Positions 6,177 through 60,153 of a stretch of 64,000 nucleotides of DNA are shown piece after piece. Below the pieces are notes generated by a model, which was given only the letters and a program-made list of their open reading frames with translations, was not told the origin of the DNA and searched no databases. Source of the DNA: a virus (Duplodnaviria > Caudoviricetes); the IMG/VR virus record IMGVR_UViG_3300017747_002922, positions 1 to 64,000 of that record; one strand, 5' to 3'. A program made the position numbers and the translations under genes. The first letter of the stretch is position 1. The number at the start of each line of letters is the position of its first letter.

Positions 6177-6532
6177 GCCACCGGTCCAAGAACGCCCGCA
6201 CCCGACGCCGACGCGAACGGTTCGCCGCCCTTGCCGCCGAACAGGGACTCACCCTCGAACAGTGGCAGGCGAATCGTGCGCAGGAGTGTGCCCGCGAGTA
6301 CGCCCAACGCCGCGAGCAAGAGGCACGCGCCCGAGCTCAACGCGCCGCGGACCTCGCCGTGGCCCGTGACCGTGTGCGTCGGGGGACCGCGACGCTCGCC
6401 GAGTTCATGGACGTCCACATGGCGAACACGATGGACTTCGTGTCGGCGGCGTGGGAGCGGCGGCTGATTCACGGCAGTCGCGCGGACGAGGTTGTGTTCG
6501 ACGCGTTCGGCCAGCCCGTCACGTTGGGATAG
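6173..6532 (+). CDS. Helical hypothetical protein in the terminase small-subunit position
   Basis: ATGA overlap; directly upstream of the large terminase; no TerS motif recognised. Confidence 0.55.
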   Translation: MSHRSKNARTRRRRERFAALAAEQGLTLEQWQANRAQECAREYAQRREQEARARAQRAADLAVARDRVRRGTATLAEFMDVHMANTMDFVSAAWERRLIHGSRADEVVFDAFGQPVTLG

Positions 6533-6540
6533 GGGTTCGC

Positions 6541-8889
6541 GTGGCTTTCTCGCTATCAGATGTTGACTCGTGGACGCCGGCTGACGTGGAGCAGGTCGCG
6601 TCTGCGCTAACAATGATGAGTTGGTACGAAAACTTCCGTGACTTCGCACGCGCGTTCTGGGATTTGGCAGATCCAACGCCGCTTGTCTGGTCCTGGCATA
6701 TGACTACGATCTGCCAAGAATCCCAAGCCATCTCCGAAGAAGCCGACCGCCGCCGCGCCATCTACGACGCGATCGTCCGCGAGTGCGGCGACGACCACGC
6801 CTTGCGCGACCAGCGGATCACCGATGAGGTCGACTCGACGCCGCTCCGGTTGGTCCTGCTCATCCCTCCCCGCGGGTCGAAGTCCACGCTGTTGTCCAAG
6901 CTGTTCGTGCTCTGGCGGTGGGCACGCCGGCCGGACACGTTCCTTGCGTTCTCGGCGATGGAGTCCAAGATCCCCGAGTTCGGCCTTGCGATCCGCGACG
7001 TGCTTCGGAGCGACCGGTATCAGGCGTTCATGGCGTTCCTCGGTCAAGCCAAGGTCGGCGCGAAGATGGTCCAAGGCCGCAAGGACAGCGACGCGACGAT
7101 CGCCCTGACCCTGTCGAACGGCGCGCGGTGGTCGGGTCACCCGATCGGCGGCCGGTTCACGGGTAAGAACGTGGACATCTCCATCATCGACGACCCGCAT
7201 GACGTGGACGAGGCCATGGGCGCGCTTCGGTCGACCGAGTCCAAGGCGGCGGCGGTCGCGAAGGTCGAGGGCATCTACAAGAGCAAGATCAACGACCGCT
7301 ACAACCTGCGCATGGTCGGCATCACGATCCTGATCATGCAGCGGGTCCACCTTCACGACCTTGCCGCGTTCATGACCGAGCAGGGCGCCCGTGTCGTGAC
7401 GATCCCCGCGGAGTACGACCCGACCGTGCCGCTGATCTCCGACCCGTTCGGAATCACGCAGACGGCATCGAAGGACCCGCGCACGATCCCGGGCCAGTCC
7501 TACAACGCGTCCCGCTTCCCGCCCGCGGAGTTGAAGCGCCTTCGGGAGATCGACCCGTTTGGGTACGCCACCAAGTTTTTGATGCGGCCTACGCTGCAAG
7601 AAGGCTCGAAGATCCAGCGTTCGTGGTTCAAGAACGAGTACAACGAGGACCCCCACGCCATCGCCGCCGAGTGCTCCGAGGTTGCGATCTCCGTCGACTC
7701 CGCGTCCACGACGAACAAGCGGTCGGACTACACCTCGATGGGTGTGTGGGGGCGCAAGGGCTCGGTTCGGATCCTGCTTGATCGCCGGTTCGGGAAGTGG
7801 GGCCTGTACGGGCTCATCGAGGAGTTCAAGTCGCTCGTGTCCGCCTGGCCCGAAGCGCAGTTCAAGTTCGTGGAGAACAAGTCGTCGGGTATTCAGTTGC
7901 TCGAAACGGCGGAACGGCTGGGCATCCCCGGCGTCGTCCCCGTGAACCCGACGCAGTCCAAGCGCGACCGGTTGGGGTACGCCATCGCCGCGCTCGAAGC
8001 GGGCAACGTCTGGATCCCGGCGTCGGCCCCGTGGAAACAGCAGTACGTGGACAACATGGTCGGCATCGACGCGGGCGGTGCGCACGACGATGATGGGGAC
8101 ATGACGTCGCAAGTGATGGAGCGATGGAACGCGGGGTTTTCCTCGTGGCTCACGTCCGACATTCGCGCCCTCATCAGCGATGCCCGGCCCGCCCATGCGA
8201 TCACCCCTTACGTGCGGCGATGGGAGCGCAAGGACGACGTCATCCGGCGGATCAACCGGTCGGAGCGGCGCCAGACTACGGACGCGGCGGTCGAGTTCTA
8301 CGCGGGCATCGTCCCCGGGTGGTGTACGGGTCGCGCCGGGTCCGCGTCGATCGGCGTCATCCTCGACATGCGGGGGACGCAGGTAGCGATGGTCGAGGTC
8401 AACGACGGGGGGATCGCCGAGTTCGTGTCCGTGTTCGCGGAAGAGGCCCTGTATTGGGGCGTGGAGCGCGTGCGGTACGCCGAGCTTCCGGGGATGCCGG
8501 CGTCGCAAATGGCTCGCGGGTTGTCGCAGCAGGGCGTCGGAATGTCCGCACACCGCGCCTTGCCCGGCCAGCGTCAGCGGTACGTCGGTGAGGCCAGGAG
8601 CGGGTACACGGGCGTGCGCGAGCAAGCGGCGGCGTTGTGGGCGTCGTTCATCGGGCAGGCCAACCGCGGACTCACGCAGGTCCGCGACATGGAGACGTTG
8701 ACCCGGCTGGAGACGATCATCGAGGACGACGGGATCCCGAAGATGCCCGACGGCGGGCCGGTGACGGGGCGAACGCTCGCCTACCTGCTCGCGGTGTCGT
8801 CGGTCGCGGATGCCCGGCCGGTCGCGCCTCCCCAAGCGGCGGACAACGCGCGCCTCGAAGGTGTCGCCGCCTCCCTGAACGCGCGATAG
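6541..8889 (+). CDS. terL: Terminase large subunit with a ~250-aa C-terminal extension
   Basis: Walker A-like PPRGSKST, Walker B IIDDP, IMQRVH, nuclease motifs ISVDSA..RSDYT, VENKSSG, AHDDDGD. Confidence 0.9.
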   Translation: MAFSLSDVDSWTPADVEQVASALTMMSWYENFRDFARAFWDLADPTPLVWSWHMTTICQESQAISEEADRRRAIYDAIVRECGDDHALRDQRITDEVDSTPLRLVLLIPPRGSKSTLLSKLFVLWRWARRPDTFLAFSAMESKIPEFGLAIRDVLRSDRYQAFMAFLGQAKVGAKMVQGRKDSDATIALTLSNGARWSGHPIGGRFTGKNVDISIIDDPHDVDEAMGALRSTESKAAAVAKVEGIYKSKINDRYNLRMVGITILIMQRVHLHDLAAFMTEQGARVVTIPAEYDPTVPLISDPFGITQTASKDPRTIPGQSYNASRFPPAELKRLREIDPFGYATKFLMRPTLQEGSKIQRSWFKNEYNEDPHAIAAECSEVAISVDSASTTNKRSDYTSMGVWGRKGSVRILLDRRFGKWGLYGLIEEFKSLVSAWPEAQFKFVENKSSGIQLLETAERLGIPGVVPVNPTQSKRDRLGYAIAALEAGNVWIPASAPWKQQYVDNMVGIDAGGAHDDDGDMTSQVMERWNAGFSSWLTSDIRALISDARPAHAITPYVRRWERKDDVIRRINRSERRQTTDAAVEFYAGIVPGWCTGRAGSASIGVILDMRGTQVAMVEVNDGGIAEFVSVFAEEALYWGVERVRYAELPGMPASQMARGLSQQGVGMSAHRALPGQRQRYVGEARSGYTGVREQAAALWASFIGQANRGLTQVRDMETLTRLETIIEDDGIPKMPDGGPVTGRTLAYLLAVSSVADARPVAPPQAADNARLEGVAASLNAR

Positions 8890-16531: not shown

Positions 16532-16624
16532 CGTCAGGGGGTGGCCTCTGTTGCGGTTTCCTCCCTTCCGGCCACCACCTGACGTTTCCTGTAGGGGGTG
16601 CTTCGGCGCCCCCTACGCTGTTTT
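16532..16624 (+). terminator. Tandem hairpins; the second is an intrinsic terminator with a cUUCGg loop
   Basis: CGTCAGGGGGTGGCC/GGCCACCACCTGACG (16532-16584), then GTAGGGGGTG-CTTCGG-CGCCCCCTAC (16591-16616) followed by GCTGTTTT. Confidence 0.7.
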
Positions 16625-16633
16625 GGAGTCCCC

Positions 16634-17971
16634 ATGCCGTACGACGTCCGCCAGTACCGCACCCGGTTGGGCCAGATGCTCCAACACTCGCCGCCGACGA
16701 TCGACGAACGCGAGTTCCGGGTCAACGCGTTGAACGCCGCGTACATGGCGATCAACGACATGGCCGACCTCCTGTTCGCGGAGGTCGAAACGGACTGGAA
16801 GGTGTGGACCGAGCGCGACGGGCAGAACCTCGGGATCACGGTGGCCGTGACGAGCGGGTCGTACGCGTTCACGTTCAGCGGGTCGCTCGGCGCGTCGTTC
16901 ACGTCGGACGCGGGCGGGCAGGACTTCGAGGACGACCAGGGCAACGTCTACACGATCAACCGGTTCACCTCAACGACCGCCGGCTACTTCGCGTCGCCCT
17001 ACGCCGGGCCCACCAACGCCGCGATGACGGTGTGGAAGATCAAGCCCTACCGCTTCTACATGCCGGTGGACTGCGCGCGCCCCCTCGCGTTCCTCAACCG
17101 CGACGTGAAGCAGCAGTGGGCGGGGTGGATCCCAATCATCGACCGGCGCACGGAGGAACGCAACTTCTCGCCGTGGTCGACCTACAGCAGCAACGTCGTG
17201 TACGTCGCAGACAACACGGCCGAGTATGACCGCGCGCCCGACATCGGCATGACGCTCTCCGAGAGCACCGCCGCCGGTTCGCTCGCCGCCTCGTCCGACT
17301 ACGAGGTTTGCTACACGACGACGCAGGAGGGCCGCGAGTCGCCGCCGTCCAAGCCGGTGCGGATCACGATGTCGAGTTCGGTCGGCTTTCACGAGATCGT
17401 CGTGGCCGACTTGGAGGACACGCGCGATGGCCTGCTCCCGACCGGCATCTACAAGAACGTGTACATCCGGCGCCTCACGTCCTCGCAGGACTTGCCGGCG
17501 GGTGACTTCTACAGCCGGTGGTTGCTCGCGTCCGCTGACGTGGCCGAGGCGACGACCACGGTGACGATCTCGTCCTTCCCGCGGTCCAGCAACAAGTCGC
17601 TGACGTACCAGAACGGCCGCAAGTTCATGCGCACGATCTGGCGCCCCGGTCAGGACATGACGTTGCGCCTCCGCTACCTCGTGCGCCCCGACCCGCTCGT
17701 GGCCGACTCGGACGTGCCGCGCAACTGGCCCCCGGCGTACCAGGATCTCGTTGTCCTCGGCGCCGCGATCGACATCGGCACGTCGCAAGGTCAGTCGACC
17801 GCGAAGATCGCCGAGTGGCGAAACCGGTACAAGACGCTGCTTGACGACATGCTCGCCAACTGCACGCAGGTCGCGAACGCACCATCGCAACGTCAGATGC
17901 GCACGGACGGCAGCGGCGCGGCGGGCGTCCTCTACACCAACGGCCCGGTCTACGGGAACTACGGGACCTGA
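16634..17971 (+). CDS. Head-tail adaptor protein with a beta-rich insertion
   Basis: Helical N-terminus (VNALNAAY), C-terminal PLVADSDVP..PPAYQDLVVLGA typical of adaptors; position. Confidence 0.65.
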   Translation: MPYDVRQYRTRLGQMLQHSPPTIDEREFRVNALNAAYMAINDMADLLFAEVETDWKVWTERDGQNLGITVAVTSGSYAFTFSGSLGASFTSDAGGQDFEDDQGNVYTINRFTSTTAGYFASPYAGPTNAAMTVWKIKPYRFYMPVDCARPLAFLNRDVKQQWAGWIPIIDRRTEERNFSPWSTYSSNVVYVADNTAEYDRAPDIGMTLSESTAAGSLAASSDYEVCYTTTQEGRESPPSKPVRITMSSSVGFHEIVVADLEDTRDGLLPTGIYKNVYIRRLTSSQDLPAGDFYSRWLLASADVAEATTTVTISSFPRSSNKSLTYQNGRKFMRTIWRPGQDMTLRLRYLVRPDPLVADSDVPRNWPPAYQDLVVLGAAIDIGTSQGQSTAKIAEWRNRYKTLLDDMLANCTQVANAPSQRQMRTDGSGAAGVLYTNGPVYGNYGT

Positions 17972-20128
17972 ATGGCGACCAGCAAGCCAGCGGCGATCGT
18001 CACCGACTTCCGAGGACTCGACGAGCGATGGGATCCTGCTGCGGGCGCAGGCATCACCGCGGGCGTTGCCGAGGATCTATGGTGGGAACCGCGTGGGGCG
18101 TGGCAGTCGTCTGGCGGCTACCAGCGGATCGTCCGTGGGCCCCCGACGTTCCCAGCCCCCACGCCGCCGACGTACATCAACCCGTTCGCGTCGTCGGGCG
18201 CGATCGAGTCGATCCACTGGTTCAGCCAGCACACGGGCGCGCGCCGGTGGCTCCTCTACATCGACAGCACCGGCGCCCTGTATGCGTTCAACCCGGCGAC
18301 GGCGGCCCGGTCAGCGTCCCCCGGCAACCGCGCGCACGACCGCAACGGCGACCCGATCACGCGGTCAGTGGTTGAAGGCCCGTGGATCCGCTCGCAGTCG
18401 GCTTCGTGGGGCGACCGCCTCTACCTGGTCAACGGCATCGACGCGCCGCTGGTGTTCGACGGCTACGTGTGGGACATCGCCGGGTGGCAGGGTCCGGCCG
18501 GCGTCGCGACCGCGTCCCCGATGTCGAAGCCGCAGGCGACCGACAACGGCGGAACGGCGTCGATCAAGATCCCGAACGTCGGCCTTGGACCAACCAGCGA
18601 CACGGGGGGCACCGACTACAAGTACGCGCGTCGGTACCGGGTGTCGTACATCAACGACCGTGGGGCCGAGTCTCCGCTTTCCGAGCCCTCCGAGTTGGTC
18701 TACTTCGTCAACACGGGCGGGACGGGGTTCGCGGACGGCGCACACTTCGCGCAGGTGTCGATCCCTGTCGGCCCGGTGTCGTGTGTGGCCCGCCGGGTGT
18801 ACGCGACGCAGAACGTGTACGACTCGACCGGAACGCTGATTCAAGGCCGGGATGAGCAATACTTCTTCTGGGGCGACATCCCCGACAACGTGACCGCGAC
18901 CATTCAGGACTCGTTGGATGACGGATACCTCGGCGCGCTCGTGGATCCGCTCCAGTTCGGCGCATGGCCCGCGTCCGCCGGCATCATCTCCGCGTTCAAG
19001 GAGCGCATGTACGCGGCGGTCGGCGGCGACGTGTACTTCTCGCGCCGGGGCAACCCCGAGGTGTGGCCCGCACTGAACGTCCTGTCGGTCGGCGACGCGC
19101 ACCTGGGGCCGATCACCGGCATGTACGCGACCCGGAACGCGCTTGTGGTCACGAAGGCGCGTGGCATCTACCTCGTGAAAGACGACGGCGTGAACGACCC
19201 GGTGGCCGAGACGTTGACGCGTCAGACCGGGTGCATCTCGCAGAACACGATCCGGGAGATCCCCGGGATCGGCATCATGTTCCTGTCCGACGACGGCGTC
19301 ACGGTGCTCAAGGGCACCTTGCAGAACGAGGGCGTGGAGACGCAGACGTTCAACGCGGGCGTCGGCTTGTGCGAGACGTTCAAGCGGATCAACCGGTCGG
19401 CCCTGACCAACGCGTGCGCCGCCGTCTACCACCGCGACAAGGAGTATTGGCTCGCGGTCCCGATGCTGGGGGCGCCGAACAACACGCTCGTGCTCGTGTT
19501 CCACTACGAGATCCGCGAGTGGACGACCCGGTCGTTCTTCCCGATCGCGTCTATCCTCGAAACGCCCGACGCCACGGGGTCGCTCCTGTTCGCGTCCTAC
19601 GCGGCGACCACGGGCACATCCCCCGACGGCATCGCGCACCCCGGCATCTTCGTCTACTCGCGCGGGTGCGCCGACAAGGATGGGACGCCGATCACGCCCG
19701 CGTACCAGACCAACCAGATCAGCGTCGCCGCGTCGTTCCGGACGTTCAAACCGCTGCATGTGATTCCGCGCGTCGTGATGCACGGTGAGAACAAGCTCCG
19801 GTGTTCCGTGTTCGCCAACTACTCCCCGGCGCCGATTGCGCCCGTCCAAGGCGTGTTGCAGAAGTACCCGCAACAGTACGCGCCCGTGTACGGTGCCGCA
19901 GGGTCGAACGCAGCCACCTACGACGCCGGCCTGTTGTGGGCGTCGTGGTTCCCGGGCACGGTGCGGTTCGACCTTCCCGGCGAGAACGGTCAACCCGTGT
20001 TCACCGCCGCGATCCGGTTTGAACCCGAAGCTGGCAAGCGGTACATGACGCTTGAAGGGACCTCGTTGGAGATCCAGCCCGCCGACCCGACCGAGACGAA
20101 ACCCCTGAAGCCCGACGGGACGAACTGA
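17972..20128 (+). CDS. Tail nozzle/tubular protein B-like (beta-propeller)
   Basis: 718 aa, DFRGLDE start, propeller-like blades (FKERMY, VYFSRRGNPEVWP, GPITGM), position after the adaptor. Confidence 0.7.
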   Translation: MATSKPAAIVTDFRGLDERWDPAAGAGITAGVAEDLWWEPRGAWQSSGGYQRIVRGPPTFPAPTPPTYINPFASSGAIESIHWFSQHTGARRWLLYIDSTGALYAFNPATAARSASPGNRAHDRNGDPITRSVVEGPWIRSQSASWGDRLYLVNGIDAPLVFDGYVWDIAGWQGPAGVATASPMSKPQATDNGGTASIKIPNVGLGPTSDTGGTDYKYARRYRVSYINDRGAESPLSEPSELVYFVNTGGTGFADGAHFAQVSIPVGPVSCVARRVYATQNVYDSTGTLIQGRDEQYFFWGDIPDNVTATIQDSLDDGYLGALVDPLQFGAWPASAGIISAFKERMYAAVGGDVYFSRRGNPEVWPALNVLSVGDAHLGPITGMYATRNALVVTKARGIYLVKDDGVNDPVAETLTRQTGCISQNTIREIPGIGIMFLSDDGVTVLKGTLQNEGVETQTFNAGVGLCETFKRINRSALTNACAAVYHRDKEYWLAVPMLGAPNNTLVLVFHYEIREWTTRSFFPIASILETPDATGSLLFASYAATTGTSPDGIAHPGIFVYSRGCADKDGTPITPAYQTNQISVAASFRTFKPLHVIPRVVMHGENKLRCSVFANYSPAPIAPVQGVLQKYPQQYAPVYGAAGSNAATYDAGLLWASWFPGTVRFDLPGENGQPVFTAAIRFEPEAGKRYMTLEGTSLEIQPADPTETKPLKPDGTN

Positions 20129-26593: not shown

Positions 26594-29500
26594 GTGGGCA
26601 AGTACCTCGACGCTGTTCGGGCCAGTCGCGAGGCCGTCAATGCTGTTCCGGTTGCCGAGGTGCCGCCCCCTGCCGAACCGGTGCGGGTGGACGATTCGGC
26701 GCCAGCCCCGTCGTACCTTGAGCGGGTTCGGGCCAGTCGCGAAAATGTCGGCGACCGCGCCCCGACCGTCCGTGTGGATGCGTTGAAGGAAGACCTGGCC
26801 CGCGGTGGTGCCTTGCTCGCGACCGCGACCCGCGCCGAACGCAAACGCGAGGGCGCATCCGACGAAGAAGCCGACGCCGCCGCGAAGGCGATCACCGACA
26901 CCGCACTCGTCCTCGGCGACAACGCGGATTCGGGCCGGGTGCGTGAGGCGTTGGCGGCCCGCGTGGGCGTCGACACGCTCGACAAGGCGATGACGCGCGC
27001 GTTCGGTCAGCGGATCATGGAGGTCCCGTTGGCGGCCCCCACGACGATCGAGCGTCAGGCCCGGTTGCGCGAGCAGGAGCGCGAGAACCGTTCCGTCGAG
27101 AAGGGGTTGGCCGCCGCATGGAACGGCGAGGGCACCGGAGAGCGTCAGGCCGAGGAGGGGGAGATCCGCCCGTGGGTTGAGGCGGTCGATCGTCTCGGAT
27201 GGAACTCGGGCGAAGACGTGCTCACGTCGGTGTTCAGCGGCGGACTCGTCCCTGCCTACAAGTTGATCACGAACGCCCCCGAGATCGTGAAGGGGTACGC
27301 GACCGACAAGGATGTCCAGAAACTCACGGGCATGGCCGGGTCCGCGATGTCGGCTGGCGTCGCCCCCTTGCTTTCTGGCGGCGAAGACCCGTTCAGCCGG
27401 ACGATCCGCGCCATGGCCGTGTCGTCCGGACTGCCCGACGTCACCGCCGAGGGCATGGACGCGTTGGGGTTTGACTCGTACTCCGTGAGCGAGTTCGCCG
27501 ACAACGTCCACGCCAAGCCCGAGTTTGACGCCGCCGCGTACGACCTCGTGACCAAGGGCGACCGTGCCGCGTTCGAGGCGGTCCCGTTCAACAAGCTCCC
27601 CGAGATGGCGAAGGGCGAGCTTGTGGACGCCGAACGCGTGCGCGAGGCCATCCGCAACGGCACGCCCGGGTTCGAGGGGTTGGCCGGCATGGAAGGACTG
27701 CGCGACGACGTGCTGTCCACGCAGGCGTCGTTCCTGCCCGTCAGCGTCATCCGGTCGATCCAGCCAGACGCGGTCCCCGACGACCTCCGAATCAAGGACG
27801 TGTTCGCCAAGCGCGAGGCCGCAAAGCCGTGGCGCGGCGACGACATGGGGATGAGCGCGGCCCGGTTGATGAACAGCGCCCTGTTGCGCCCGGCCGGCGA
27901 TGGCAAGACGCTGATGGTGGCCCCCGGTCGCTTTCAGGAGTTGTTGCGGTTCGCCAACGCTGTGCCCGCCGCGTTGATGAACGTGGACGCGGGCACCGAC
28001 ACGCCCGTCCTGAACCTCCCGCTGGCCCTCCCGCGCGCCGCCCTGTACGCCGCCGAGGCCATGGGCGTCCCGGGTGCCGAGAACGTGCGCGGCAAGGTAG
28101 AGGCGTTCAAGGTTCCCACCACGGCCGGCGTCGAGTCCATGATCCAGTCGGGCGAGTACGACGACCTGTTGGAGTCCATGGGGTTCTTCACGTCCGACAC
28201 GTACGCGAACCGCTACGACCCCGAATCGACGTGGCTGTCCCGCACCCTGACCGAGATCGCGAACCCCGACGCCGCCGGCCAGTACCTCGGCGACACCTAC
28301 GAACGATTGGGCGGCGACCCCGAATCCACGACGGCGCGCGTGTTGGGTACCGCCGACCTTGCGGTGAACGTGCTGATGCCGGCCGAGGAACTGGCGTTGC
28401 TCCCGATCGCGAAGGCGACGGCGGCCACGAACCGGGCCCGTCGTGCCGCAAACGCCGCCCGCGAACTCGGCTTGAACGGAAAGGCCGCGCGAAAGGCTGC
28501 AAAGGAAGCGGTGTTCGTCGGTTCGGACCCTCGGCAAGCGGTCGCCGATTCGCTCACCCGCGCGTCGATCGAGGGGATCCGCGACGGCACCCTGAACCCC
28601 GCCAAGGTCCCGCTCGCCACCAAGAAGGCGATCGAGTCCGTGCTCCGCGCCGCCGGGATGCCCGAGGATCTGCTCACCGTCGAGAAGGGCCGTCCGCACG
28701 CCAAGATTTGGGATGACCTCGCCGACCGCCGCGCCCGCATCCTCGAAACGGCGGCGGACTTCGAGACGATCGGTGGCCCGGCCACGCAGAAGTTGCGCGC
28801 GTCGCCCGAGTATCGCGCGGTTGCAGATCAGTTGGACGTCTTCACGCGCACCCGTTCGATGACGCCCGACGAAGAGGCAGCGGTTGCGGCGGACGTGGCG
28901 GCGGGACGTGTGCCGAAGATGACGGGCAACCTGTCGATGCGTGATCGTGACCTCGTGTTGCGGTTCCTCGAAGCGGCGGCGTTTCGGGCAGCAGACGACG
29001 GGGTGGTCAAGTCCCCCGAAGAATACTTCGCCCGCCACTCGTGGGAGGTCGGCAAGGAGGGGGAGGCGTTGCCGGCGGGCACTCTGAACCAGACGACCAC
29101 CGTGCGTTCTGGCGAAGAGTCCATGAAGAAGTACGGGTTGGAGCCCGGCAAGAAGTACACGAATCGGCAGGTCGCGGAAGCGTTGGAGAAGCGCCAACGC
29201 GCAAAGTACGGTTCGATCGCCGCCGAGGATCGCAGTCCGGAGGCGAGGGCAAAGATCGCGAAGTGGATCCGCGACGAGGTGCTGTTCTCCATCAACAACC
29301 CCAAGAAGTCCGGGGTTGGGTGGTACTCAACCGAGTTCCAGAAGGCCCTTGACACCGTGGGTGAGCGGTTCCCCGAACTGCTGGACGATCAAGACGCGCG
29401 GGATCTGATGACCGTGCTGTTCGCCATCACCAGCGACGGGAAGTCGGTACCCGACAACCTCAAGCAAGCACTGGACTTGTACGAGGCCCGAAAGGTGACC

Positions 29501-32500
29501 GGATCGTTCACGGAGATGGGCCATTCTTCGTACAGGGACGCACTATCCGACAATCTGGCAACGCTTCAAGACCTCTACGAGTCGCGCACGCCGGCAGAAG
29601 TCCGTCAGTACCTCATGGAGGAGATTACCGTTGCGGACTACAACAAGGCGATGCGGGCAGCGGGAAAGCCTGACGAGGTCATCGACACGTATCAGGGCCA
29701 CGTACGCATCCCCCGTGCCGCCGCGGTGCTTGGCGCGAAGTTGGGCGCGTTCTACGCGAACCTCATGGGTGCTGAAGGGTACCTGACCATGGATCGGTGG
29801 TGGTCGCGGTCGTTCAACCGCTACCGCGGAACGCTCCTGTCGCATGCCACCGAAACCGGGAAGGCGCGGGTCAAGGAGATGCTTGGCAACCCCGACATGT
29901 CCGACGCGGACCTGATGACGGCAATCAAGCCGATCGTCAAGGCGTACGACAAGAGCGGGTTCAAGGACAAGACTCCCCTCAACGTGGCCGCAAACACGGT
30001 GTGGAAGAACGCGAACGAACTGGAAGATTCGCCGTTCGGTGCCCCTGACCGCACGTTCATGATCGACACCGTGAGGGAGGCACAACGCCTTCTTCGGCAG
30101 AAGGGCCACGCCATCAGTGCCGCTGACATTCAGGCCATCCTGTGGTACTACGAGAAACGCCTCTATGGAGAACTTGGTGCCCGAAACTCCCTCGACGCCG
30201 CCTACTCCGACATCGCCCGAAACGTCATCGACGCCTACAAGCGCGGAGTTCGACCCGGAACACCCGATGTGGGTGCCCCTGTCGCGCGCCAAGGCGTCGA
30301 TGTCGCCGAAGGCATGGAACGCCTTGATCGCGTCGATCCCGGCGGCCCCACCCCGGACGTAGGCGCCGAGGCATTCGACGGCGACGCCGCAAACGCTCTC
30401 GCCGCCTTGGACGATCCCGACCGCCTCCTCTCCCAAGAATCCGGCGTCACCCGCGGGTCGATCGAACGCGTGTCCCCCGAACGCGCCGCCGGCACCGACT
30501 ACGCCAAGGCCGAGATCGCCCGCCTTGTCGCCGAAGGGTCGTCCGAGGTCGCCGCCGCGATGAAGGTCCGCGACGCCCTCCCGCGTCGGATCGCAGACAT
30601 GACCGAGCGCGACCTTGGGATCCGCGACTACTTCACCGGCGGCCCCACGAAGGCGCGTACGGCACCCCGTCGTCCCGCTCGTCCTGATCCGCTTGCAGAT
30701 CCCGCCGTTGTCGCGGCACAACGCGAACTTGACGCGGCGACTGCTGCACGTCAGGCCATTGCCGCCGAGGCGTTGGCGCGCGGCGAGAAACCGTGGTCGT
30801 TCCCGCCGTCGCCCGAGATGCGCGCGGCGGACGATGTGGTGGAGCGTGCCTACACGCGCCACATGCTCGCGTTGGACCGAGCCAAGTCCGTGCTTCGGTC
30901 GGAAGAGGGCGGCGTCGTTCGCGGGACGATTGAGAGGGTGCCGAGCGATGCCCCCGCCCGTGTCCTGCCCTCGCAGTACGGCGTCACCCCCGAGGATCTG
31001 AACCAGACGTCGAAGGGGATCCCCTACCTCTCCATCACGGTTCAGGACGTGGACACGGACGGAATCAGCATGGAACTGATGTCCGCAGATGGCAGGGCCA
31101 CGCCCATGCGCGTTCGGCCCGATGCCGTGGATGCCGAGTTTGGGGAGCGTGTCGGCACGCACATCCGCGACGCGGTGCGCCGGTTTGAGCGCACTGGCGA
31201 CAACGTCGAAATCCACCCAGAAGGCGAACTGATCTCCCGGCTGTTCACCAACCCAGACGGCGCACCGGACCATGTCGACGTCCGCACGATGCTGAAAGCC
31301 GTTGTGGACATCGCCGACGAGACGGACGACATTCTGGCCGCAGAACTCGCGCGCAACCTGCTCGACAACGCTGATTCCGACCTGTTCGCGCGCACATCCG
31401 TCGAACTCGTCCCGTACGACGGCGAGAACGTGGGGGCGTACTACGACGGGATGGTCACTCTCACGAGGGACGTGGGGCCCCGCGTCGCGCTCCATGAGGC
31501 CGCCCACGCCGCGACCTACCGCATCCTTCATGCCGACCCTGCGACCCTCTCGGAAGCAGGGCGCACCGCCGTTCGCCGGCTGAACGAGTTGTACGACGAG
31601 GTCAAGGCATCGGGTCGTATTCCGAAGGCCGAATACGGGTTTACCAACATCGATGAGTTCGTGGCCGAGGCATACAGTAACGACGAATTTCAGTCGTGGT
31701 TGCGATCGGTTCCGGTCGCGGGTAGCTCTCGGTCGTTGTGGGACGCGTTCGTTGAGACGATCTCGGAATGGCTTGGGTTGTCCAGTTCCGACGCGTTCGC
31801 GCACGTTATGGCGAACACGCAGATCGTGATCCGGGAACGACCGAGCGGTGCGACTGCGACACCGTCGGCCCCGCTGTTCTCGCGCAAGGGCGACACGATC
31901 CGCGGCGCAATCTCGCCCGACGCCCGCACCGTCACCGTGGACAACCCCGAGTACGCCGCGTGGGTCGCGAGGGAGGCCGCGCTTTCGGCCGAGGTTGACG
32001 CGCTTCGGGACGCGCCCGCCGCCGTGGGTGCCGAGGTCCCAAACCCCGCCTACCCCGATGCGGTCAAGCAAGTTCAGGCCACCGACGCCGAGATCCGCGA
32101 CATCAAGCAGCAGGCATCGCGCGCGTTCGGCGTCAACCCGGCGTGGACGGCGTGGGAAGCCGAGATCCCCCGGCTGGCGAACGACCCCGAGGCGTTGGGT
32201 CGGCACATGGCCGCGCAACCCCCGAAGTCCGCGCAGCACGTCAACAACGCCCTGATTGCGCAGAAAGAGGCGGACCTTGCGGCGTTGCGGGCGAACATCC
32301 CGCCGAAGACGCTGACGCAACCCGCGCCTGTTGACCCCGCCATCGCCGCGCGCGAGGCCGACCTTGCCGCGACCCGTGCCGCCGAACCGCCACGGACGGT
32401 CACGAAGCCCGACGACGTGTCTCGCTGGCTGCTCAAGTTGTTCCGCACGGGCGACGTCAAGACCGCGCTTCACGAGGGCACGCACCTCCTCGACCTGATG

Positions 32501-35500
32501 ATGGGCGAGGAGTGGACGCGCAAAGCGATGGAGGCCCTTGGCTACGACCCGACGGGGCCGATCACGACGGAGGTTCGGGAGCGCATCGCCGAAGCGGGAA
32601 CGCGTGCGCTTCGGGGCACGTTGCGGCCCGGAACCGTGCTCGGGAACGTCATGGAGGACTTGCGCGACACCGTGGGCGACGTGTGGCGGCGGGTCAAGCG
32701 TGAACCCGCGGTGACGACGCCCGCGTTCCGGAAGTTGTGGGACAAGACCTTTGCGCCCGACGACGCCGAGATGATGGTGGCCGCGCACCTTGTCGACCAG
32801 CACGGCACGGGTCCGTTGGGGCGCGTGGTGACGACGAGCGGCAACGTGGCCGAGGAGATCCGCGAGGGTGCCCAACGCGCCGCGGGCCAGGCCGAGAACG
32901 CCGCCAACGTGATGCGCGCCAATCAGGAGGTGCGGCAGGCGTTGGGCCTCACCAACGACATGGACACGATCGCGGTCGGCGACCTGTTGGGGCGCGCGCT
33001 TGCCTACACCGCCACGACGCACGCCCTTCGCGGGTGGGGGTTTGGTGACCTTGAAGGACTGACGGCGCGGACGGCGGTTCCGGCGGTACGTGCGAAGCGG
33101 ATCCGCAACGAGGTAGCCGCGTACCGAAAGGCGGTCCTCGGAGGCAAAGATGCCCCGGTCCCGACGCTGGTGGACGGGCGCGAAGTGTTCATGCTCAACC
33201 GCGACCAGCAGGCCGGCGTGCGTCGGATGCTCGCGGACCTCGCCAACGAACCCGTGAGTGTCGACCTTCCCGAGCGGTTGCAGGACCCCCGCGCCGACCT
33301 TTCGCAGATCACCCGCGAAGAGTGGGCGAACATCGCGGATCGTCAGTTGGAGGTCCGGGCGGGTGCGGGTGCATGGCGCGACCGTCTCGCCGAACGGGCC
33401 GCCGTGTCCGCCGGGGTGCGCTTCGGGCAGATGGCGATGGACGCCGCCCGCAACCAGCAAAGCGCCGTGTCCGCGGAGGCCAACGCGCTTCGGGACGCGT
33501 TCGTCACCACGATCGCCGCCGACGAGTACCTGAACCCGGCGACGCGCGAAGTGCTGAAGTCGGTGGCGCGCGAGATTGGCGAGTCGGGTTCGCGCGTGAA
33601 GAACGCCGTGATCAAAGCCATGAACGGCGGCGAGAAGGCGTGGGCGGAAGCGTTCAAGGACGTGGCCGCCGCGCTTCCCCCCGAAGTGGTGCCGGTCGAA
33701 GAACTCCGCACGCTTCGGCGCGTGGAACCCCTCGCGACCGCGGACACGTTTGAGCAGGTGGCGACGGGTGCGCCCGAGATTCAACGCCTGTTCACGAACG
33801 CGCCGCTGGGCGACACCGAGCAGACCGTACAGGAGTGGGCGGGGTTGACCGTCATCGACCGCGTGAACTGGCGTGTGCGCGAGGACGGGATGGACTTCAC
33901 CGCCGCGATCTCGGACGCCGGCTACACGCTGGATGAGGTCAACGACGCGATGGCCCGCGTACAGGAGGGCATCAAGCGCCGTGTCGCCGTGTTCGACAAC
34001 CGCGCGAGCGAGATCATGCACGCGTTCGCCGGAAGTGACGACGCGCAGGTGTTCGCCGGAATGGATCCCGCACGGTTGGCGGCGGCCAAGTACCGTGCGT
34101 ACGAGTCGTGGTACACGGGCGATTGGGCGGACAACCTGTTGCTCAACACCGAACTTGGGCAGGCTGCACGCGGCCCCGTCTACGATCAGGGCATGGCGGT
34201 CCTCAACGTCCTGACCCGCCTCGAAGCGGCGAAGGTGCGGGCATCGCTCGCGCGCAGGCTTGCGGACGTGGGCGTGGTCGCGGATCCGACGTCGTTCCTT
34301 CGCGGCGGGGTGCGCCTTGACCGGCCCTACGTGTTCGGGTCGGCGGCGAACGACGTGGAGGCAATCACGGGCGAGGCGTACAAGCAGGACGTGATGCACT
34401 ACCTCGCGGCGTTTACGGGTTGGAAGGTGACGTCCACGAACCGCCTGCCGACCATGGAGACGGAGGGGGTGTTTGTCCCGGGCACAGGGATGCGCGCGGC
34501 GTCAGGGTCGGTCAACAAGGCCGCCGCTTCCGACGCGCTCCGCATGATCCAGTCGTGGGGCATGAAGATGGGCAAGGGGTCGGAGTGGGAGACGATCACC
34601 CTTCCCGACGGCGGGCAGATCGTGATGCCGACCATGTTCCGCGAACCGATCGAGAAGGCGTTGGCGGACTCGGCGCCGCTTGGGGGTGCATTCACGAGCG
34701 GGCCGCCGAAGCTCGGCAACATCGTGCCCGGCACCGACGAACCGATCGCCGCCCACTACCGCGCCGTCAACGCCGCCCTGACCATGCTCGGGACCGCCTA
34801 CCAGTATTCGTTCGGGATGCTGAAGACCGGACTGACGACGGGCATGGGTCCGTTGATCCGGCCGGCGTTCTTCATGGGGCAGTTCATCGGCGGCATGGGG
34901 CAGTTGTACCAGGGCGTCGGGGCGATCAAGGCGTTGGAGATCATGGCCCGTCCGCTGTTGCCGACCGCCGAGGGCCGCATGACGCGCGCTGTCATCGCCA
35001 GGATGTGGAACAACGGCGCGGGGTTGACCGGGACCGGGGCGATGATGCCGGCCGAACTCGGGCGCTTCGATGTGGTCGGGCGGTGGCACTCGGATCAGTC
35101 GCTCGCGTCGGGTGCGTCGCGAGCGGGGCTCAACTCGTCCTTGGTAAAGACCGAGTTCGCGCAGAGCATCGCCGAGGATATCAAGGCGGCCGAACCGACG
35201 TTGTGGAACCGCCTCATGGACTCGCCGAAGCTGAAGGCCGCCGCGGGTGCCGTCATCGGTGGCGCAGTCGCGGGGCTCGGGGGTGCCGTTGTCGGTGCGG
35301 GGGCGTTCGCGTCCTTGTCGCGGACGTGGCAGGACTTCTTCCGCGAGGCCGCGACCGGGATCGACAACTACTACCGGGTGTCGACCTACATCGGTGAGGT
35401 GCTCCGCGGCGTCCCCGAGGAGCAGGCGGCCGAACTCGCGCGCCGTGTCGCGTTCGACTACAACAACGTCACCGAGTTTGAGAAGAACTACCTGCGCAAG

Positions 35501-36445
35501 GGCGTGTTGTTCTACTCGTTCCAGCGCAACAATCAAAACCTGTTCTGGTGGACGCTCCTGAACCACCCGTCGCGCATCATGGTCCAACTGCGCGCGCTTC
35601 GGGGGGCGCAACAGGAGAACTTCGGCGAGGACGCGGAGTTGTTCGCGCCGACGTGGGGGGAGGGCCGGGTGCCGTTCCGGTTCCGCCCGGCGTTCGAGGC
35701 AGGGCACGCCGACCGCGCCACGCAAGGCGCCGTCACGCTGACGCCCCGGTTGTCGATCGCGGACGCCGTCGGGTTGTGGCAGTCGCTCCTTGGGGTGACG
35801 ACCGAGCTTGACCCGTCCGCCGCCGGGGACCTCGCGTCGAAGCTGAACCCGTGGATCCAGTTGTCGTTCGTGATGTCGACGGGGCAGGACATTCACTGGC
35901 AGCGGTCGATCGAGGGGTTCAACACGATCCCCAACTGGTTCGTCGAGATGGACGAGAACCTGACCGGCGGGATGGTCGTCAACGACCTCTTCGGCAAGAT
36001 CCCCGCGCAGTACCGCAACCCGTCGCAGGAGGGTTACCCGGGCGCCCCGCAGTGGATCGTCAAGCCCGACGGCCCGCACTCCCGCGCGTGGTGGGTGTTC
36101 CGGCAGATGACGATGGGCGGGGCCATGCTCGACACGATCACCGCCATGCAGCGCGCGGACTTCGGCGACACGCTGATTGAGGGCGGCATCGTGCAGAAGG
36201 GCGTCGACCTGTCGCGGGAGGTCGCACGGGCAGACGGGCGCGAACCCCTGCGCAACGAGCCCGACACCGAGATGGCGCGGTCAGGGTTGACCGAAGCGGA
36301 GGAACTCGGGTCGTGGCTCGGGTTCAAACCGGTTCAGGTGCTCGACCGGGACCAGGCCCTCGCGCCCCTCATTCAGCGTCGCGAGTCCGAGCAGAACGCG
36401 AAGATGCGCACCCTCAAGAAAGAGGGCGAGCGGACCTACCACTAA
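26594..36445 (+). CDS. Giant (3283-aa) polyvalent internal virion/ejection protein
   Basis: One uninterrupted ORF with GGAGG RBS; two HExxH motifs; HhH-like domain; C-terminal AELARRVAFDYNNVTEFEKNYLRKGVLFYSF segment typical of large ejection proteins. Confidence 0.9.
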   Translation: MGKYLDAVRASREAVNAVPVAEVPPPAEPVRVDDSAPAPSYLERVRASRENVGDRAPTVRVDALKEDLARGGALLATATRAERKREGASDEEADAAAKAITDTALVLGDNADSGRVREALAARVGVDTLDKAMTRAFGQRIMEVPLAAPTTIERQARLREQERENRSVEKGLAAAWNGEGTGERQAEEGEIRPWVEAVDRLGWNSGEDVLTSVFSGGLVPAYKLITNAPEIVKGYATDKDVQKLTGMAGSAMSAGVAPLLSGGEDPFSRTIRAMAVSSGLPDVTAEGMDALGFDSYSVSEFADNVHAKPEFDAAAYDLVTKGDRAAFEAVPFNKLPEMAKGELVDAERVREAIRNGTPGFEGLAGMEGLRDDVLSTQASFLPVSVIRSIQPDAVPDDLRIKDVFAKREAAKPWRGDDMGMSAARLMNSALLRPAGDGKTLMVAPGRFQELLRFANAVPAALMNVDAGTDTPVLNLPLALPRAALYAAEAMGVPGAENVRGKVEAFKVPTTAGVESMIQSGEYDDLLESMGFFTSDTYANRYDPESTWLSRTLTEIANPDAAGQYLGDTYERLGGDPESTTARVLGTADLAVNVLMPAEELALLPIAKATAATNRARRAANAARELGLNGKAARKAAKEAVFVGSDPRQAVADSLTRASIEGIRDGTLNPAKVPLATKKAIESVLRAAGMPEDLLTVEKGRPHAKIWDDLADRRARILETAADFETIGGPATQKLRASPEYRAVADQLDVFTRTRSMTPDEEAAVAADVAAGRVPKMTGNLSMRDRDLVLRFLEAAAFRAADDGVVKSPEEYFARHSWEVGKEGEALPAGTLNQTTTVRSGEESMKKYGLEPGKKYTNRQVAEALEKRQRAKYGSIAAEDRSPEARAKIAKWIRDEVLFSINNPKKSGVGWYSTEFQKALDTVGERFPELLDDQDARDLMTVLFAITSDGKSVPDNLKQALDLYEARKVTGSFTEMGHSSYRDALSDNLATLQDLYESRTPAEVRQYLMEEITVADYNKAMRAAGKPDEVIDTYQGHVRIPRAAAVLGAKLGAFYANLMGAEGYLTMDRWWSRSFNRYRGTLLSHATETGKARVKEMLGNPDMSDADLMTAIKPIVKAYDKSGFKDKTPLNVAANTVWKNANELEDSPFGAPDRTFMIDTVREAQRLLRQKGHAISAADIQAILWYYEKRLYGELGARNSLDAAYSDIARNVIDAYKRGVRPGTPDVGAPVARQGVDVAEGMERLDRVDPGGPTPDVGAEAFDGDAANALAALDDPDRLLSQESGVTRGSIERVSPERAAGTDYAKAEIARLVAEGSSEVAAAMKVRDALPRRIADMTERDLGIRDYFTGGPTKARTAPRRPARPDPLADPAVVAAQRELDAATAARQAIAAEALARGEKPWSFPPSPEMRAADDVVERAYTRHMLALDRAKSVLRSEEGGVVRGTIERVPSDAPARVLPSQYGVTPEDLNQTSKGIPYLSITVQDVDTDGISMELMSADGRATPMRVRPDAVDAEFGERVGTHIRDAVRRFERTGDNVEIHPEGELISRLFTNPDGAPDHVDVRTMLKAVVDIADETDDILAAELARNLLDNADSDLFARTSVELVPYDGENVGAYYDGMVTLTRDVGPRVALHEAAHAATYRILHADPATLSEAGRTAVRRLNELYDEVKASGRIPKAEYGFTNIDEFVAEAYSNDEFQSWLRSVPVAGSSRSLWDAFVETISEWLGLSSSDAFAHVMANTQIVIRERPSGATATPSAPLFSRKGDTIRGAISPDARTVTVDNPEYAAWVAREAALSAEVDALRDAPAAVGAEVPNPAYPDAVKQVQATDAEIRDIKQQASRAFGVNPAWTAWEAEIPRLANDPEALGRHMAAQPPKSAQHVNNALIAQKEADLAALRANIPPKTLTQPAPVDPAIAAREADLAATRAAEPPRTVTKPDDVSRWLLKLFRTGDVKTALHEGTHLLDLMMGEEWTRKAMEALGYDPTGPITTEVRERIAEAGTRALRGTLRPGTVLGNVMEDLRDTVGDVWRRVKREPAVTTPAFRKLWDKTFAPDDAEMMVAAHLVDQHGTGPLGRVVTTSGNVAEEIREGAQRAAGQAENAANVMRANQEVRQALGLTNDMDTIAVGDLLGRALAYTATTHALRGWGFGDLEGLTARTAVPAVRAKRIRNEVAAYRKAVLGGKDAPVPTLVDGREVFMLNRDQQAGVRRMLADLANEPVSVDLPERLQDPRADLSQITREEWANIADRQLEVRAGAGAWRDRLAERAAVSAGVRFGQMAMDAARNQQSAVSAEANALRDAFVTTIAADEYLNPATREVLKSVAREIGESGSRVKNAVIKAMNGGEKAWAEAFKDVAAALPPEVVPVEELRTLRRVEPLATADTFEQVATGAPEIQRLFTNAPLGDTEQTVQEWAGLTVIDRVNWRVREDGMDFTAAISDAGYTLDEVNDAMARVQEGIKRRVAVFDNRASEIMHAFAGSDDAQVFAGMDPARLAAAKYRAYESWYTGDWADNLLLNTELGQAARGPVYDQGMAVLNVLTRLEAAKVRASLARRLADVGVVADPTSFLRGGVRLDRPYVFGSAANDVEAITGEAYKQDVMHYLAAFTGWKVTSTNRLPTMETEGVFVPGTGMRAASGSVNKAAASDALRMIQSWGMKMGKGSEWETITLPDGGQIVMPTMFREPIEKALADSAPLGGAFTSGPPKLGNIVPGTDEPIAAHYRAVNAALTMLGTAYQYSFGMLKTGLTTGMGPLIRPAFFMGQFIGGMGQLYQGVGAIKALEIMARPLLPTAEGRMTRAVIARMWNNGAGLTGTGAMMPAELGRFDVVGRWHSDQSLASGASRAGLNSSLVKTEFAQSIAEDIKAAEPTLWNRLMDSPKLKAAAGAVIGGAVAGLGGAVVGAGAFASLSRTWQDFFREAATGIDNYYRVSTYIGEVLRGVPEEQAAELARRVAFDYNNVTEFEKNYLRKGVLFYSFQRNNQNLFWWTLLNHPSRIMVQLRALRGAQQENFGEDAELFAPTWGEGRVPFRFRPAFEAGHADRATQGAVTLTPRLSIADAVGLWQSLLGVTTELDPSAAGDLASKLNPWIQLSFVMSTGQDIHWQRSIEGFNTIPNWFVEMDENLTGGMVVNDLFGKIPAQYRNPSQEGYPGAPQWIVKPDGPHSRAWWVFRQMTMGGAMLDTITAMQRADFGDTLIEGGIVQKGVDLSREVARADGREPLRNEPDTEMARSGLTEAEELGSWLGFKPVQVLDRDQALAPLIQRRESEQNAKMRTLKKEGERTYH
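29111..30240 (+). other. HhH-GPD/EndoIII-OGG-like DNA glycosylase-type domain within the giant protein (aa ~840-1215)
   Basis: Ordered motifs GWY, FAITSDG, GAKLGAFYANL, LTMDRWWSR, ADIQAILW. Confidence 0.6.
31300..31790 (+). other. Zincin metallopeptidase domain (polyvalent-protein MPTase type) within the giant protein
   Basis: GAYYDG...VALHEAAHAA (31493-31507), then YGFTNIDEFVAEAYSN and LWDAFVETI. Confidence 0.8.
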
Positions 36446-53441: not shown

Positions 53442-53780
53442 ATGTTTCAACGAGCCCCCGGTGAACTTGACCCGTTCGCAAACGGGAACATGTCGGACGA
53501 GTACAAGATCCAGACCATCAAGGACAACCTGCGCGCCCGTCAGCAGGCCCCCAACTACACCGGCTTTCTGACCGAGGAAGAGGCTGACTTCCTGTTCGGC
53601 GCCGTCGACCGCGCGAAGGAAGAGGCCGAAGAGGCGCGACAGGAACTCGAATCCACGCGCTCCGACCTGACCACGCAGATCGAAGAACTCGACGAGAAGG
53701 TCAGTGCCGCCGACGACAAGATCAAGGACCTCGAAGACGAGATCGAAGAACTCCGCAACAACAAGGACGCAACCCCGTGA
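53442..53780 (+). CDS. Acidic coiled-coil protein
   Basis: GAGGT RBS; heptad-rich C-terminus. Confidence 0.65.
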   Translation: MFQRAPGELDPFANGNMSDEYKIQTIKDNLRARQQAPNYTGFLTEEEADFLFGAVDRAKEEAEEARQELESTRSDLTTQIEELDEKVSAADDKIKDLEDEIEELRNNKDATP

Positions 53781-54892
53781 ACCTCATCATCTCCCGCAAA
53801 GAACTCGACGAACTCGCCGCCCGCGCACGGGGCATCGTCGAATCGAAGCCAAGCAACCCCGTCCTCGGGTGCGTCATCATCGACGCGACGCCTGACGGGG
53901 TCACCGCCACGTCCTACCGCTCGTCCATGGGCTACGTCGGCACCTACACGGCGAACGTGAGCGACCGCGGCCGGATCGCCGTCGACGTCGACGCGCTCCA
54001 GAAGGCGATCAAGACGCTCCCGCCCGGCCCGATCGCGATGGACGTGTCGACCACGAACCTGCGCCTCAAGATGTCCGTCGGCAAGTCGACGACGACGATC
54101 GGCACACTGGACCCCGCCGACCATCCCGGCGTCGTCGACGTCAAGGCCACCCACACGCTCACCGTCGACGCGCCCGCACTCCGGACGATCATCGACCAGA
54201 CCGTCAAGTGCATCGCCGAGGACGACAACAAGTATGGCCTGTCGGTGCTCCTGTTGGAGTTCGTCGGCGGCAAGGTCCGCGCCGTGTCGACCGATGGGAA
54301 CCGGCTGGCGTGGTCCGAGTGCGACGCCACGGGGGACGCGCCGTCCGGTACGCTCGTGCCCCGCGCGTGCGTGCTGGAGATGCGCGCGATGATCGACAAG
54401 ATCGCCGGCCCGGTTGAGATCGCCATCGAGCCCGGCCCGCGCGCTGGCTCCAAGCCGCGCGCACTCGCCGTCAAGTTGCCGGGCGAGACGCTGACGATCC
54501 GGTGCGCCGAGGTCGACTTTCCCGACTACCGGCAGGTGTTGCCGACGAACTACAAGCGGACGTGGACGGTCGACCGCGTCAACCTGCACGACACGTTGCG
54601 TCGCTTCCCGGTCGCGACGGGGTCCAACGCCGTCACCGTCACGCTCACCAACGGCACGGTCCACATGCGCCGGACGTGGGACACCAGCGAGACGAGCGCC
54701 GAGATCGACGCGAACTACACCGGCGACCGCACGGTGATGGGGTTCAACGTCGTCTATCTGGCGAACGCGCTGGGCGTCTGCACCGGCACCGACGTCGCGA
54801 TCAAGATGGGTGACACGCTGTCGCCGGTCGTGATCGAGGACCCTACCAACTCGGCGGCGCAGTTCGTCGTCATGCCCGTGCGGCTGGATTGA
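53777..54892 (+). CDS. dnaN: DNA polymerase III beta sliding clamp
   Basis: 371 aa; NPVLGCVII, VSTDGNRLA, DFPDYRQVLP, GFNVVYL, FVVMPVRL. Confidence 0.9.
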   Translation: MNLIISRKELDELAARARGIVESKPSNPVLGCVIIDATPDGVTATSYRSSMGYVGTYTANVSDRGRIAVDVDALQKAIKTLPPGPIAMDVSTTNLRLKMSVGKSTTTIGTLDPADHPGVVDVKATHTLTVDAPALRTIIDQTVKCIAEDDNKYGLSVLLLEFVGGKVRAVSTDGNRLAWSECDATGDAPSGTLVPRACVLEMRAMIDKIAGPVEIAIEPGPRAGSKPRALAVKLPGETLTIRCAEVDFPDYRQVLPTNYKRTWTVDRVNLHDTLRRFPVATGSNAVTVTLTNGTVHMRRTWDTSETSAEIDANYTGDRTVMGFNVVYLANALGVCTGTDVAIKMGDTLSPVVIEDPTNSAAQFVVMPVRLD

Positions 54893-59412: not shown

Positions 59413-59430
59413 GACTTCGATTCGCTGATG

Positions 59431-59532
59431 TTCGATGGCAGTCGAACGGAAGCTCCGATTCTTAGCGGCGATGGCCGCGCCCTGCGCCACCCGGTTCCGC
59501 TGCCACGGCGCCGGGTGGCCTTCGGAGTTTCG
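59431..59532 (+). ncRNA. Candidate cis-regulatory structured leader (three-way junction masking the SD)
   Basis: P1 59449-58/59522-31, P2 59465-69/59474-78, P3 59486-94/59511-19, plus 5' hairpin 59431-35/59442-46. Confidence 0.5.
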
Positions 59533-60153
59533 GTGATCTCGTACGCCTCTCGCACCGGCACCAAACGCAACCTCGCGGCCCTCCGTGGCGCGGGGTGGCG
59601 GATCCTTGTGTCGGCGAAGGGCGTCCACCGCACCGAGGGATTCCCCTACGCGATCGACAACGGGGCGTGGACGGCGCATCAGCAGGGCATCCCGTTCGAC
59701 GATGCGGCGTTCATCAAGTGCGTGAACTACCTCGGCGCCGACGCTGACTTCGTGGTGGCCCCTGATGTCGTCATGGGCGGCATGGGGTCGCTCGCGTTGT
59801 CGCTGACGTGGCTCCCGTGGTTGCGCGATCGGTGCCGCCGGATCCTTGTCCCCGTTCAGGACGGGATGACCGACGAGGACATCGCGCCGCTCCTGTCTCC
59901 CGAGCTCGGGATCTTCGTGGGCGGATCGACCGAGTGGAAGGAGGCGACCACCCTCCGATGGTCGCGCCTTGCTCACGCTCACGGGGCGTGGTGCCACGTC
60001 GGGCGCGTCAACACGGTTCGTCGGATCCGCATCTGTCAGTTCGCCGCCGTCGATTCGATCGATGGTTCGTCCGCCTCTCGCTACGCCGTGACCCTGCCGA
60101 AACTTGACGGGGCCGTTCGTCAACCTTCTCTCTTCGGGTGCCTGAATGCCTGA
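59533..60153 (+). CDS. Minimal TGT/DpdA-like deazaguanine transglycosylase (206 aa)
   Basis: TGT-type motifs IDNGAW, APDVV, VPVQDG, IFVGG, HVGRVN, DSIDGS; adjacent to queC; GGAG 5 nt before the GTG. Confidence 0.7.
   Translation: MISYASRTGTKRNLAALRGAGWRILVSAKGVHRTEGFPYAIDNGAWTAHQQGIPFDDAAFIKCVNYLGADADFVVAPDVVMGGMGSLALSLTWLPWLRDRCRRILVPVQDGMTDEDIAPLLSPELGIFVGGSTEWKEATTLRWSRLAHAHGAWCHVGRVNTVRRIRICQFAAVDSIDGSSASRYAVTLPKLDGAVRQPSLFGCLNA

Follow-up and report, generated by a model that had tools for sequence, protein, structure and literature searches.

A predicted HhH-GPD glycosylase-fold cassette within a giant late-operon protein of a tailed phage

The 64,000-nt stretch of DNA analyzed here (the window) comprises positions 1 to 64,000 of IMG/VR record IMGVR_UViG_3300017747_002922, a complete 77.9-kb virus record of the Caudoviricetes with direct terminal repeats. 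According to the list of open reading frames (ORFs) and their translations, the last large gene of its + strand late operon is a giant ORF, P0001 (26594..36445), encoding a protein of 3283 aa. All features described below lie on the same strand. Our best reading of the structural models is that 29078..30289 (aa 829-1232 of P0001) encodes a very divergent member of the helix-hairpin-helix/Gly-Pro-Asp (HhH-GPD) base-excision fold group, forming one cassette of this modular protein. We regard the fold assignment as well supported and hold it with high confidence. Further, the phage probably delivers a base-cutting enzyme together with its DNA, because the block with the predicted glycosylase fold is the only part of P0001 that is shared with thousands of giant phage proteins.

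Predicted fold and conservation of the cassette

The AlphaFold2 (AF2) model of aa 829-1232, built from a 50-row alignment, is all-alpha, with a predicted local distance difference test score (pLDDT) of 91.1 and a predicted template modeling score (pTM) of 0.86. Model residues are numbered from aa 829 of P0001. When this model was compared with 48,161 representative chains using VIA-align, ranks 1-23 all belonged to one fold group, the HhH-GPD glycosylases, with ROS1, MIG, Mag1, MutY, AGOG and AlkA among them. With two independent AF2 models, the HhH-GPD fold group alone stood at the top of the structural search. The portion matched by solved glycosylases is a two-lobed, all-alpha core of about aa 874-1204 (29213..30205; model residues ~46-376). 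The initial annotation of this DNA, made from the sequence alone, had named a fold other than HhH-GPD as the outcome that would speak against its glycosylase proposal; both models and the structural search favor HhH-GPD. Ogg2-type enzymes are nominally closest in structure, with many families level to within 1-2 Z units. We also considered a lysozyme or lytic transglycosylase, as is common in ejection proteins, and rejected this reading because no such chain appeared in any structural list.

By sequence comparison, the cassette is a conservation island within an otherwise unrelated protein, because BLASTP coverage of P0001 by 231 giant relatives is confined to aa ~851-1200: coverage is ~1.0 there and at most 0.02 over nearly all of the remaining sequence. 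Outside the cassette, P0001 has sequence in common only with two or three very close relatives. The annotated borders of 29111-30240 were correctly located and slightly tight, the conserved block extending over aa ~829-1232, or about 404 aa.

The family is large. Searching with aa 820-1240 returned 693 proteins at E ≤ 1e-3, the best 119 of which have E values of 1e-112 to 1e-213 and 46-80% identity, every one of them 1.8-4.4 k aa long. Overall, the giant phage polyvalent relatives range from 1.8 to 5.7 k aa, and cassette identity is 46-80% in hundreds of them. When 1.84 billion cluster representatives were searched with a profile, 2402 clusters at 50% identity matched (1215 below 1e-30), nearly all of giant proteins. 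Stand-alone forms of 220-700 aa number 14 proteins and are mostly fragments from short contigs. Almost all come from phages that are uncultured and for the most part aquatic. Among the cultured phages of INPHARED there were three distant matches only, annotated as hypothetical or as "crystallin". The core motifs, including GWY, are kept in a 26%-identical protein of 3125 aa from Limnohabitans phage DC33, a distant carrier that has been cultured. Scanning prokaryote genomes with a strict pattern gave eight loci, mostly on short contigs of metagenome-assembled genomes. The sole copy in a long (1.7 Mb) bacterial contig is that of Polynucleobacter sp. UB-Piko-W3 (L088; NZ_JACVPY010000002.1, 820714-834006), and because it lies inside such a contig it presumably sits in a prophage.

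Aligning 242 relatives, each 37-80% identical to the query, shows at least 95% identity at about 65 positions. The five motifs listed in the initial annotation (GWY, AITS, GAKLGAFYANL, LTMDRWWSR and ADIQAILW) are the most conserved blocks of the module and so no chance occurrences. All five were found where it had placed them, inside 29111-30240 and in the order given, spanning aa 909-1184. Fully conserved residues of these motifs are W, Y, S (of AITS), K, G, F, N, T, D, W, R, D, Q, A and W.

The cassette opens with a junction-type motif, LNQTTTVRSGEES (29078..29116; aa 829-841), at which the conserved block of the relatives also starts. An acidic linker (aa 1233-1295; 14 D+E vs 5 K+R) precedes the next junction motif, LLSQESGVTRGSIE (30425..30463; aa 1278-1290), which closes the cassette; a similar motif follows the domain in one relative (L084). 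A regular-expression scan placed the short form, V/T-R-G/S-x-I/E, at aa 837, 1286, 1442 and 1769 of P0001. In its fuller form, L-x-S/N-Q/R...V/T-R-G/S-x-I/E, the motif recurs at aa ~829, 1278, 1442 and 1761, the last two copies being at ~30914-30931 and ~31874-31912. P0001 contains at least four cassettes with the repeated motif between them, and the motif may mark module borders or protease cutting sites.

Putative active-site signature and relation to known families

From the N-terminus, the first conserved block of the core is GWY (29318..29326; aa 909-911), in which G is 99% and W and Y are each 100% conserved among the 242 relatives. AITS (29423-29434; aa 944-947), with its invariant S, begins an AITSDG turn (29423..29440; aa 944-949) between model helices 105-118 and 124-141. 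Nine residues on is the invariant N955 (N127 of the segment, 100%).

The predicted catalytic region follows. A helix-turn-helix (29714..29764; aa 1041-1057) ends in GAKLGAFYANL (29732-29764; aa 1047-1057) and carries the invariant Lys1049 (nt 29738-29740) in the first turn of its second helix. In the model, as assigned by DSSP, the two helices are residues 213-218 and 220-229, with a one-residue break at G219. They are followed by a loop at 230-239 containing G231 and G234, and D239, which corresponds to D1067, directly precedes helix 240-250. At the sequence level, 29765..29830 comprises this Gly-rich loop (MGAEGYLTM), the invariant Asp1067 (nt 29792-29794) and the Arg-rich helix DRWWSRSFNRYRG (aa 1067-1079); LTMDRWWSR spans 29783-29809 (aa 1064-1072). 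The model therefore contains the succession expected of HhH-GPD enzymes, a helix-turn-helix, a Gly-rich loop and an invariant Asp at a helix start, with a connecting turn of one residue. The helix past the Asp (DRWWSR.FNRYRG) is itself invariant and includes R1068, R1072, R1076 and R1078.

A three-helix insertion (29843..30022; aa 1084-1143) comes next, for which there is no room in small glycosylases (model ~310 residues vs chains of ~200). ADIQAILW (30122-30145; aa 1177-1184) then begins the C-terminal "Q..lW" helix, ADIQAILWYYEKRLY (30122..30166; aa 1177-1191; model helix 348-365), in which D, Q, A, W, E, K and L are 100% conserved. The three features on which the glycosylase proposal had been built, a G-x-K on the second helix of a helix-turn-helix, an Asp after a Gly-rich loop and a C-terminal Q..LW helix, are thus all present and invariant in the family.

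K1049 and D1067 are each conserved in 242/242 sequences, and the spacing of 18 residues between them is likewise kept in all 242. In the sequence of E. coli Endonuclease III (EndoIII, Nth), K120 and D138, its established catalytic residues, are also 18 apart. The sole local alignment with Nth obtained using hhalign pairs D1067 with D138 (E 0.68, not significant). A relaxed hhalign run (E 0.51, not significant) is collinear from the AITSDG turn, which falls on the LLSAQ..N turn of Nth (residues ~30-48), to the Asp. According to Hung et al. (2023; PMC9881137), no residues other than this Asp and this Lys are invariant between Qng1 and the families of HhH DNA glycosylases.

Several observations weigh against reading the cassette as a glycosylase. 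Its relation to these enzymes is visible by structure and motif only and is not captured by any sequence statistic. PF00730 (HhH-GPD) had no match at E ≤ 10 across the 77.9-kb genome, while 14/14 control genomes matched. Searches of PDB sequences with phmmer and with a profile in hmmsearch gave nothing relevant, and comparing the family profile with E. coli Nth in hhalign gave E 0.5-0.7, which is not significant. Foldseek, which the initial annotation had recommended as a check, matched nothing in PDB at E ≤ 0.001 for either of the two models; Qng1 and AGOG appeared at E 0.3-1.4. VIA-align is thus the only search in which the fold shows. The gapped hhalign alignment puts K1049 in the hairpin and not on Nth K120, and the turn between the two model helices is one residue long, compared with five in the canonical hairpin. 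The domain also contains a 60-residue insertion and an N-terminal extension of ~50 residues. The proposed equivalence of K1049 and D1067 to the catalytic pair rests on secondary structure and spacing. Among the PDB matches, a Snf2 helicase row (E 0.42) falls on the DRWW motif by chance, and the annexin and polysaccharide deacetylase rows were likewise rejected as chance matches.

Differences from the nearest characterized enzymes are substantial. Compared with the Ogg2-type 8-oxoguanine DNA glycosylase/apurinic-apyrimidinic (AP) lyases (M. jannaschii MjOgg, 3knt; T. maritima Tm1821, 3n0u), the phage domain has 8-13% identity with no sequence-level signal. It is ~120 residues longer, owing to the insertion at aa 1084-1143 and the N-terminal extension, and it is embedded in a 3283-aa protein. 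Unlike Endonuclease III / NTHL1 (PF00730), it has no Cys cluster and so lacks the iron-sulfur cluster loop, and its modeled hairpin is shortened. Qng1 (DUF2419), a queuosine-5'-monophosphate glycosylase, differs in acting on a nucleotide, in a K..D spacing of 32 and in having no phage or virion context.

Judged by sequence, the cassette belongs to no curated family, and the nearest is DUF7178 (PF23802, viral proteins). No other Pfam family touches the domain, and DUF7178 does so always on the K...D motif (profile positions ~108-142). It never reaches its 27-bit cut-off, scoring 13.6-13.8 bits here and 10.3-15.5 bits in 21/30 carrier genomes (20/29 relatives). DUF7178 proteins of ~385-390 aa are also the nearest named clusters in ESM-Atlas (score 0.97; 25/30 matches). 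In BFVD, only uncharacterized pieces of polyvalent proteins match the cassette fold. We found no literature on DUF7178. As modeled, we regard the cassette as a variant of a known enzyme fold that is an orphan by sequence and occurs in a new context.

Late-operon setting and predicted delivery

P0001 lies downstream of the late genes described next, on the same strand. The large terminase gene, TerL, is at 6451-8889 (phrog_38, E 1.2e-53). An SU10-type adaptor gene is at 16598-17971 (PF24175, E 4.7e-07; 30.9 bits vs a 27-bit cut-off). It is followed at 17972-20128 by a nozzle/internal virion protein ORF (phrog_511 "internal virion protein", E 1.5e-13), which also matches records annotated "phage stabilization protein". 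The same late operon includes a weakly portal-like gene. Ejection proteins of P22-like podophages are encoded at the same operon position as P0001.

Polyvalent proteins are giant modular products of late genes, for which packaging and injection are predicted (Iyer et al. 2017, PMC5512222). With its giant size, several cassettes and place behind TerL, the adaptor and the nozzle-like gene, P0001 has the architecture and gene context of this class. The named polyvalent-protein domains (LPDs, ART-PolyVal, MPTase and others) are absent from P0001 by Pfam, and Pfam and PHROGs searches with the whole protein and with four sub-segments gave no family match. Such domains do occur in its cassette-bearing relatives, which have LPD22 at the N-terminus and ART-PolyVal, PBECR5, LPD23/37, GNAT, Zeta and others elsewhere; these domains are typical of injected polyvalent proteins, the class to which the relatives belong (Iyer et al., PMC5512222). 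Across the ~400-aa cassette block of these relatives, Pfam has no match. The word "glycosylase" is absent from that paper, and none of its Pfam LPD families matches the cassette (PMC5512222). In the literature searched, no account of a glycosylase-fold domain within a phage virion or a polyvalent protein turned up, in keeping with the remark in the initial annotation that no characterized example is known.

We infer that the capsid contains P0001 and that the protein exits together with the DNA, because its gene stands behind the adaptor and nozzle genes and by analogy with polyvalent proteins. In its C-terminal third (aa 2601-3283; 34394-36442), P0001 has Gly/Ala-rich hydrophobic stretches that resemble membrane segments; these 683 aa had no match among 50,697 phage records.

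Proposed function and alternative explanations

We consider it fairly likely that the modeled cassette is a virion-delivered DNA glycosylase/AP-lyase. The giant protein would be packed in the capsid and ejected together with the phage DNA, as suggested by the position of P0001 and its kinship with polyvalent proteins. The cassette would then flip a nucleotide out of DNA and cleave its N-glycosidic bond; this chemistry is proposed because of the fold, the putative catalytic pair and the enzyme-like conservation. If so, the enzyme is probably bifunctional, with the Lys carrying out the lyase step via a Schiff base. The Arg-rich helix after the Asp fits a phosphate-rich substrate.

Because the cassette keeps ~50% identity in phages that share nothing else and has no tie to a particular DNA-modification pathway, its expected target is not specific to certain hosts but universal in DNA: an ordinary base, for instance, or an abasic site or some common lesion. 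Repair of the incoming genome and damage to host DNA would be equally compatible with these data. Phages inject RNA polymerases, ADP-ribosyltransferases, methylases and anti-restriction proteins. We know of no phage that injects a base-excision enzyme. More than 2000 protein clusters carry the cassette, the sole module linking their otherwise unalignable members to P0001, which speaks for an early step of some importance in which DNA base chemistry takes part. If active, the cassette would represent a new arm of phage-host conflict or of virion-borne genome maintenance. Activity would also assign a role to the block that, among those lacking annotation, is best conserved in these polyvalent proteins, as well as to DUF7178, which is related, and would provide a large and diverse supply of new glycosylase scaffolds.

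A more specific version of this proposal, which we hold only tentatively and think rather doubtful, is that the one conserved working part of a very large class of injected giant proteins is a base-excision enzyme serving not in repair but as an offensive or counter-defense weapon. Its targets in the first seconds of infection would be bases of host DNA or of defense-marked DNA, and a small partner encoded in the +1 frame at the 3' end of the cassette would restrain it in the producing cell. The candidate for this partner is a nested +1-frame ORF at 30165..30362 (65 codons plus stop) that begins within the domain's final helix. The TAT codon of Tyr1191 and the G after it make up its ATG, and TAT serves 4/72 Tyr codons of the P0001 gene. 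Of 68 related loci, 31 have the homologous +1 frame open over 55-90 codons, and the products have a short motif in common. The ATG is at the same Tyr in 20 of those 31, and some of the others have a Met about 13 codons downstream. On the other side, the closest relative has ACG instead of ATG at the start site. GC content at third codon positions (GC3) tracks the main frame, and 16% of the +1 positions in this GC-rich gene are open for at least 65 codons. Mean pairwise identity is 0.16 in the +1 frame and 0.20 in the main frame, by a crude test. Codon usage and the conservation test thus lend the nested ORF no support, and it is an unproven lead, not a finding.

The same fold and chemistry could instead serve a substrate other than DNA, as in Qng1: a free nucleotide or a nucleotide-derived host signal, such as an immune messenger or an NAD-derived molecule. 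Insertions add to the size of the cassette (at aa 1084-1143 and over the N-terminal ~50 residues) and also to that of Qng1, whose insertions block the DNA cleft and whose substrate is a nucleotide (PMC9881137). However, the K-to-D spacing of 18 is that of EndoIII, compared with 32 between K199 and D231 of StQng1 (PMC9881137). The invariant Arg-rich helix suits a polyanionic substrate, though it is compatible with a nucleotide. We judge a nucleotide substrate to be unlikely, though a serious rival.

The Qng1 matches, together with a QueC gene in this phage (60146-60742; PF06508, E 3.8e-44), prompted us to consider a link to queuosine or 7-deazaguanine. QueC was found in 1/30 carrier genomes overall and in none of the other 29, of which 23 are at least 90% complete, and the link was rejected on this ground. 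Pfam TGT has no match anywhere in the phage genome. A deazaguanine-DNA role is unlikely because of the absence of QueC from the other carriers, and the suggestion in the initial annotation that the enzyme might strip 7-deazaG-type modifications gained no support. Upstream of QueC is a 241-aa ORF (59428-60153), called DpdA-like in that annotation, which has no Pfam match. An N6/N4 methylase is also encoded by the phage.

It is also possible, with a lower probability still, that the module is non-catalytic and that the fold has been kept to grip the phage DNA or its end as the genome is packaged or ejected. HhH elements anchor DNA independently of its sequence (PMC9881137). In addition, the domain is near-universal in the family and slowly evolving, more like a structural part than an arms-race effector. 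Yet all 242 sequences keep, at a fixed spacing, the pair of residues by which catalysis is defined in this fold group. Dozens of nearby polar residues are fixed as well, which a pure binding module would be expected to lose.

A DNA base-modifying transferase on the same fold, decorating bases like gp46 of phage PaMx11 (a 5-PmdU glycinyltransferase), is very improbable. In the structural search, PaMx11 gp46 ranks below about 15 true glycosylases. Hypermodification enzymes work during replication and would not be expected in a virion structural polyprotein. The distribution of QueC given above offers this explanation no help, with the limit that thymidine-hypermodification genes were not searched for. 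Least probable of all is convergence, in which an unrelated helical domain would mimic the glycosylase fold and have a function that does not involve N-glycosidic bonds.

Farther along the window is a gene for a DNA polymerase III beta sliding clamp of the phage's own (53777-54892), with all three clamp domains matching at E values of 1e-11 to 1e-17.

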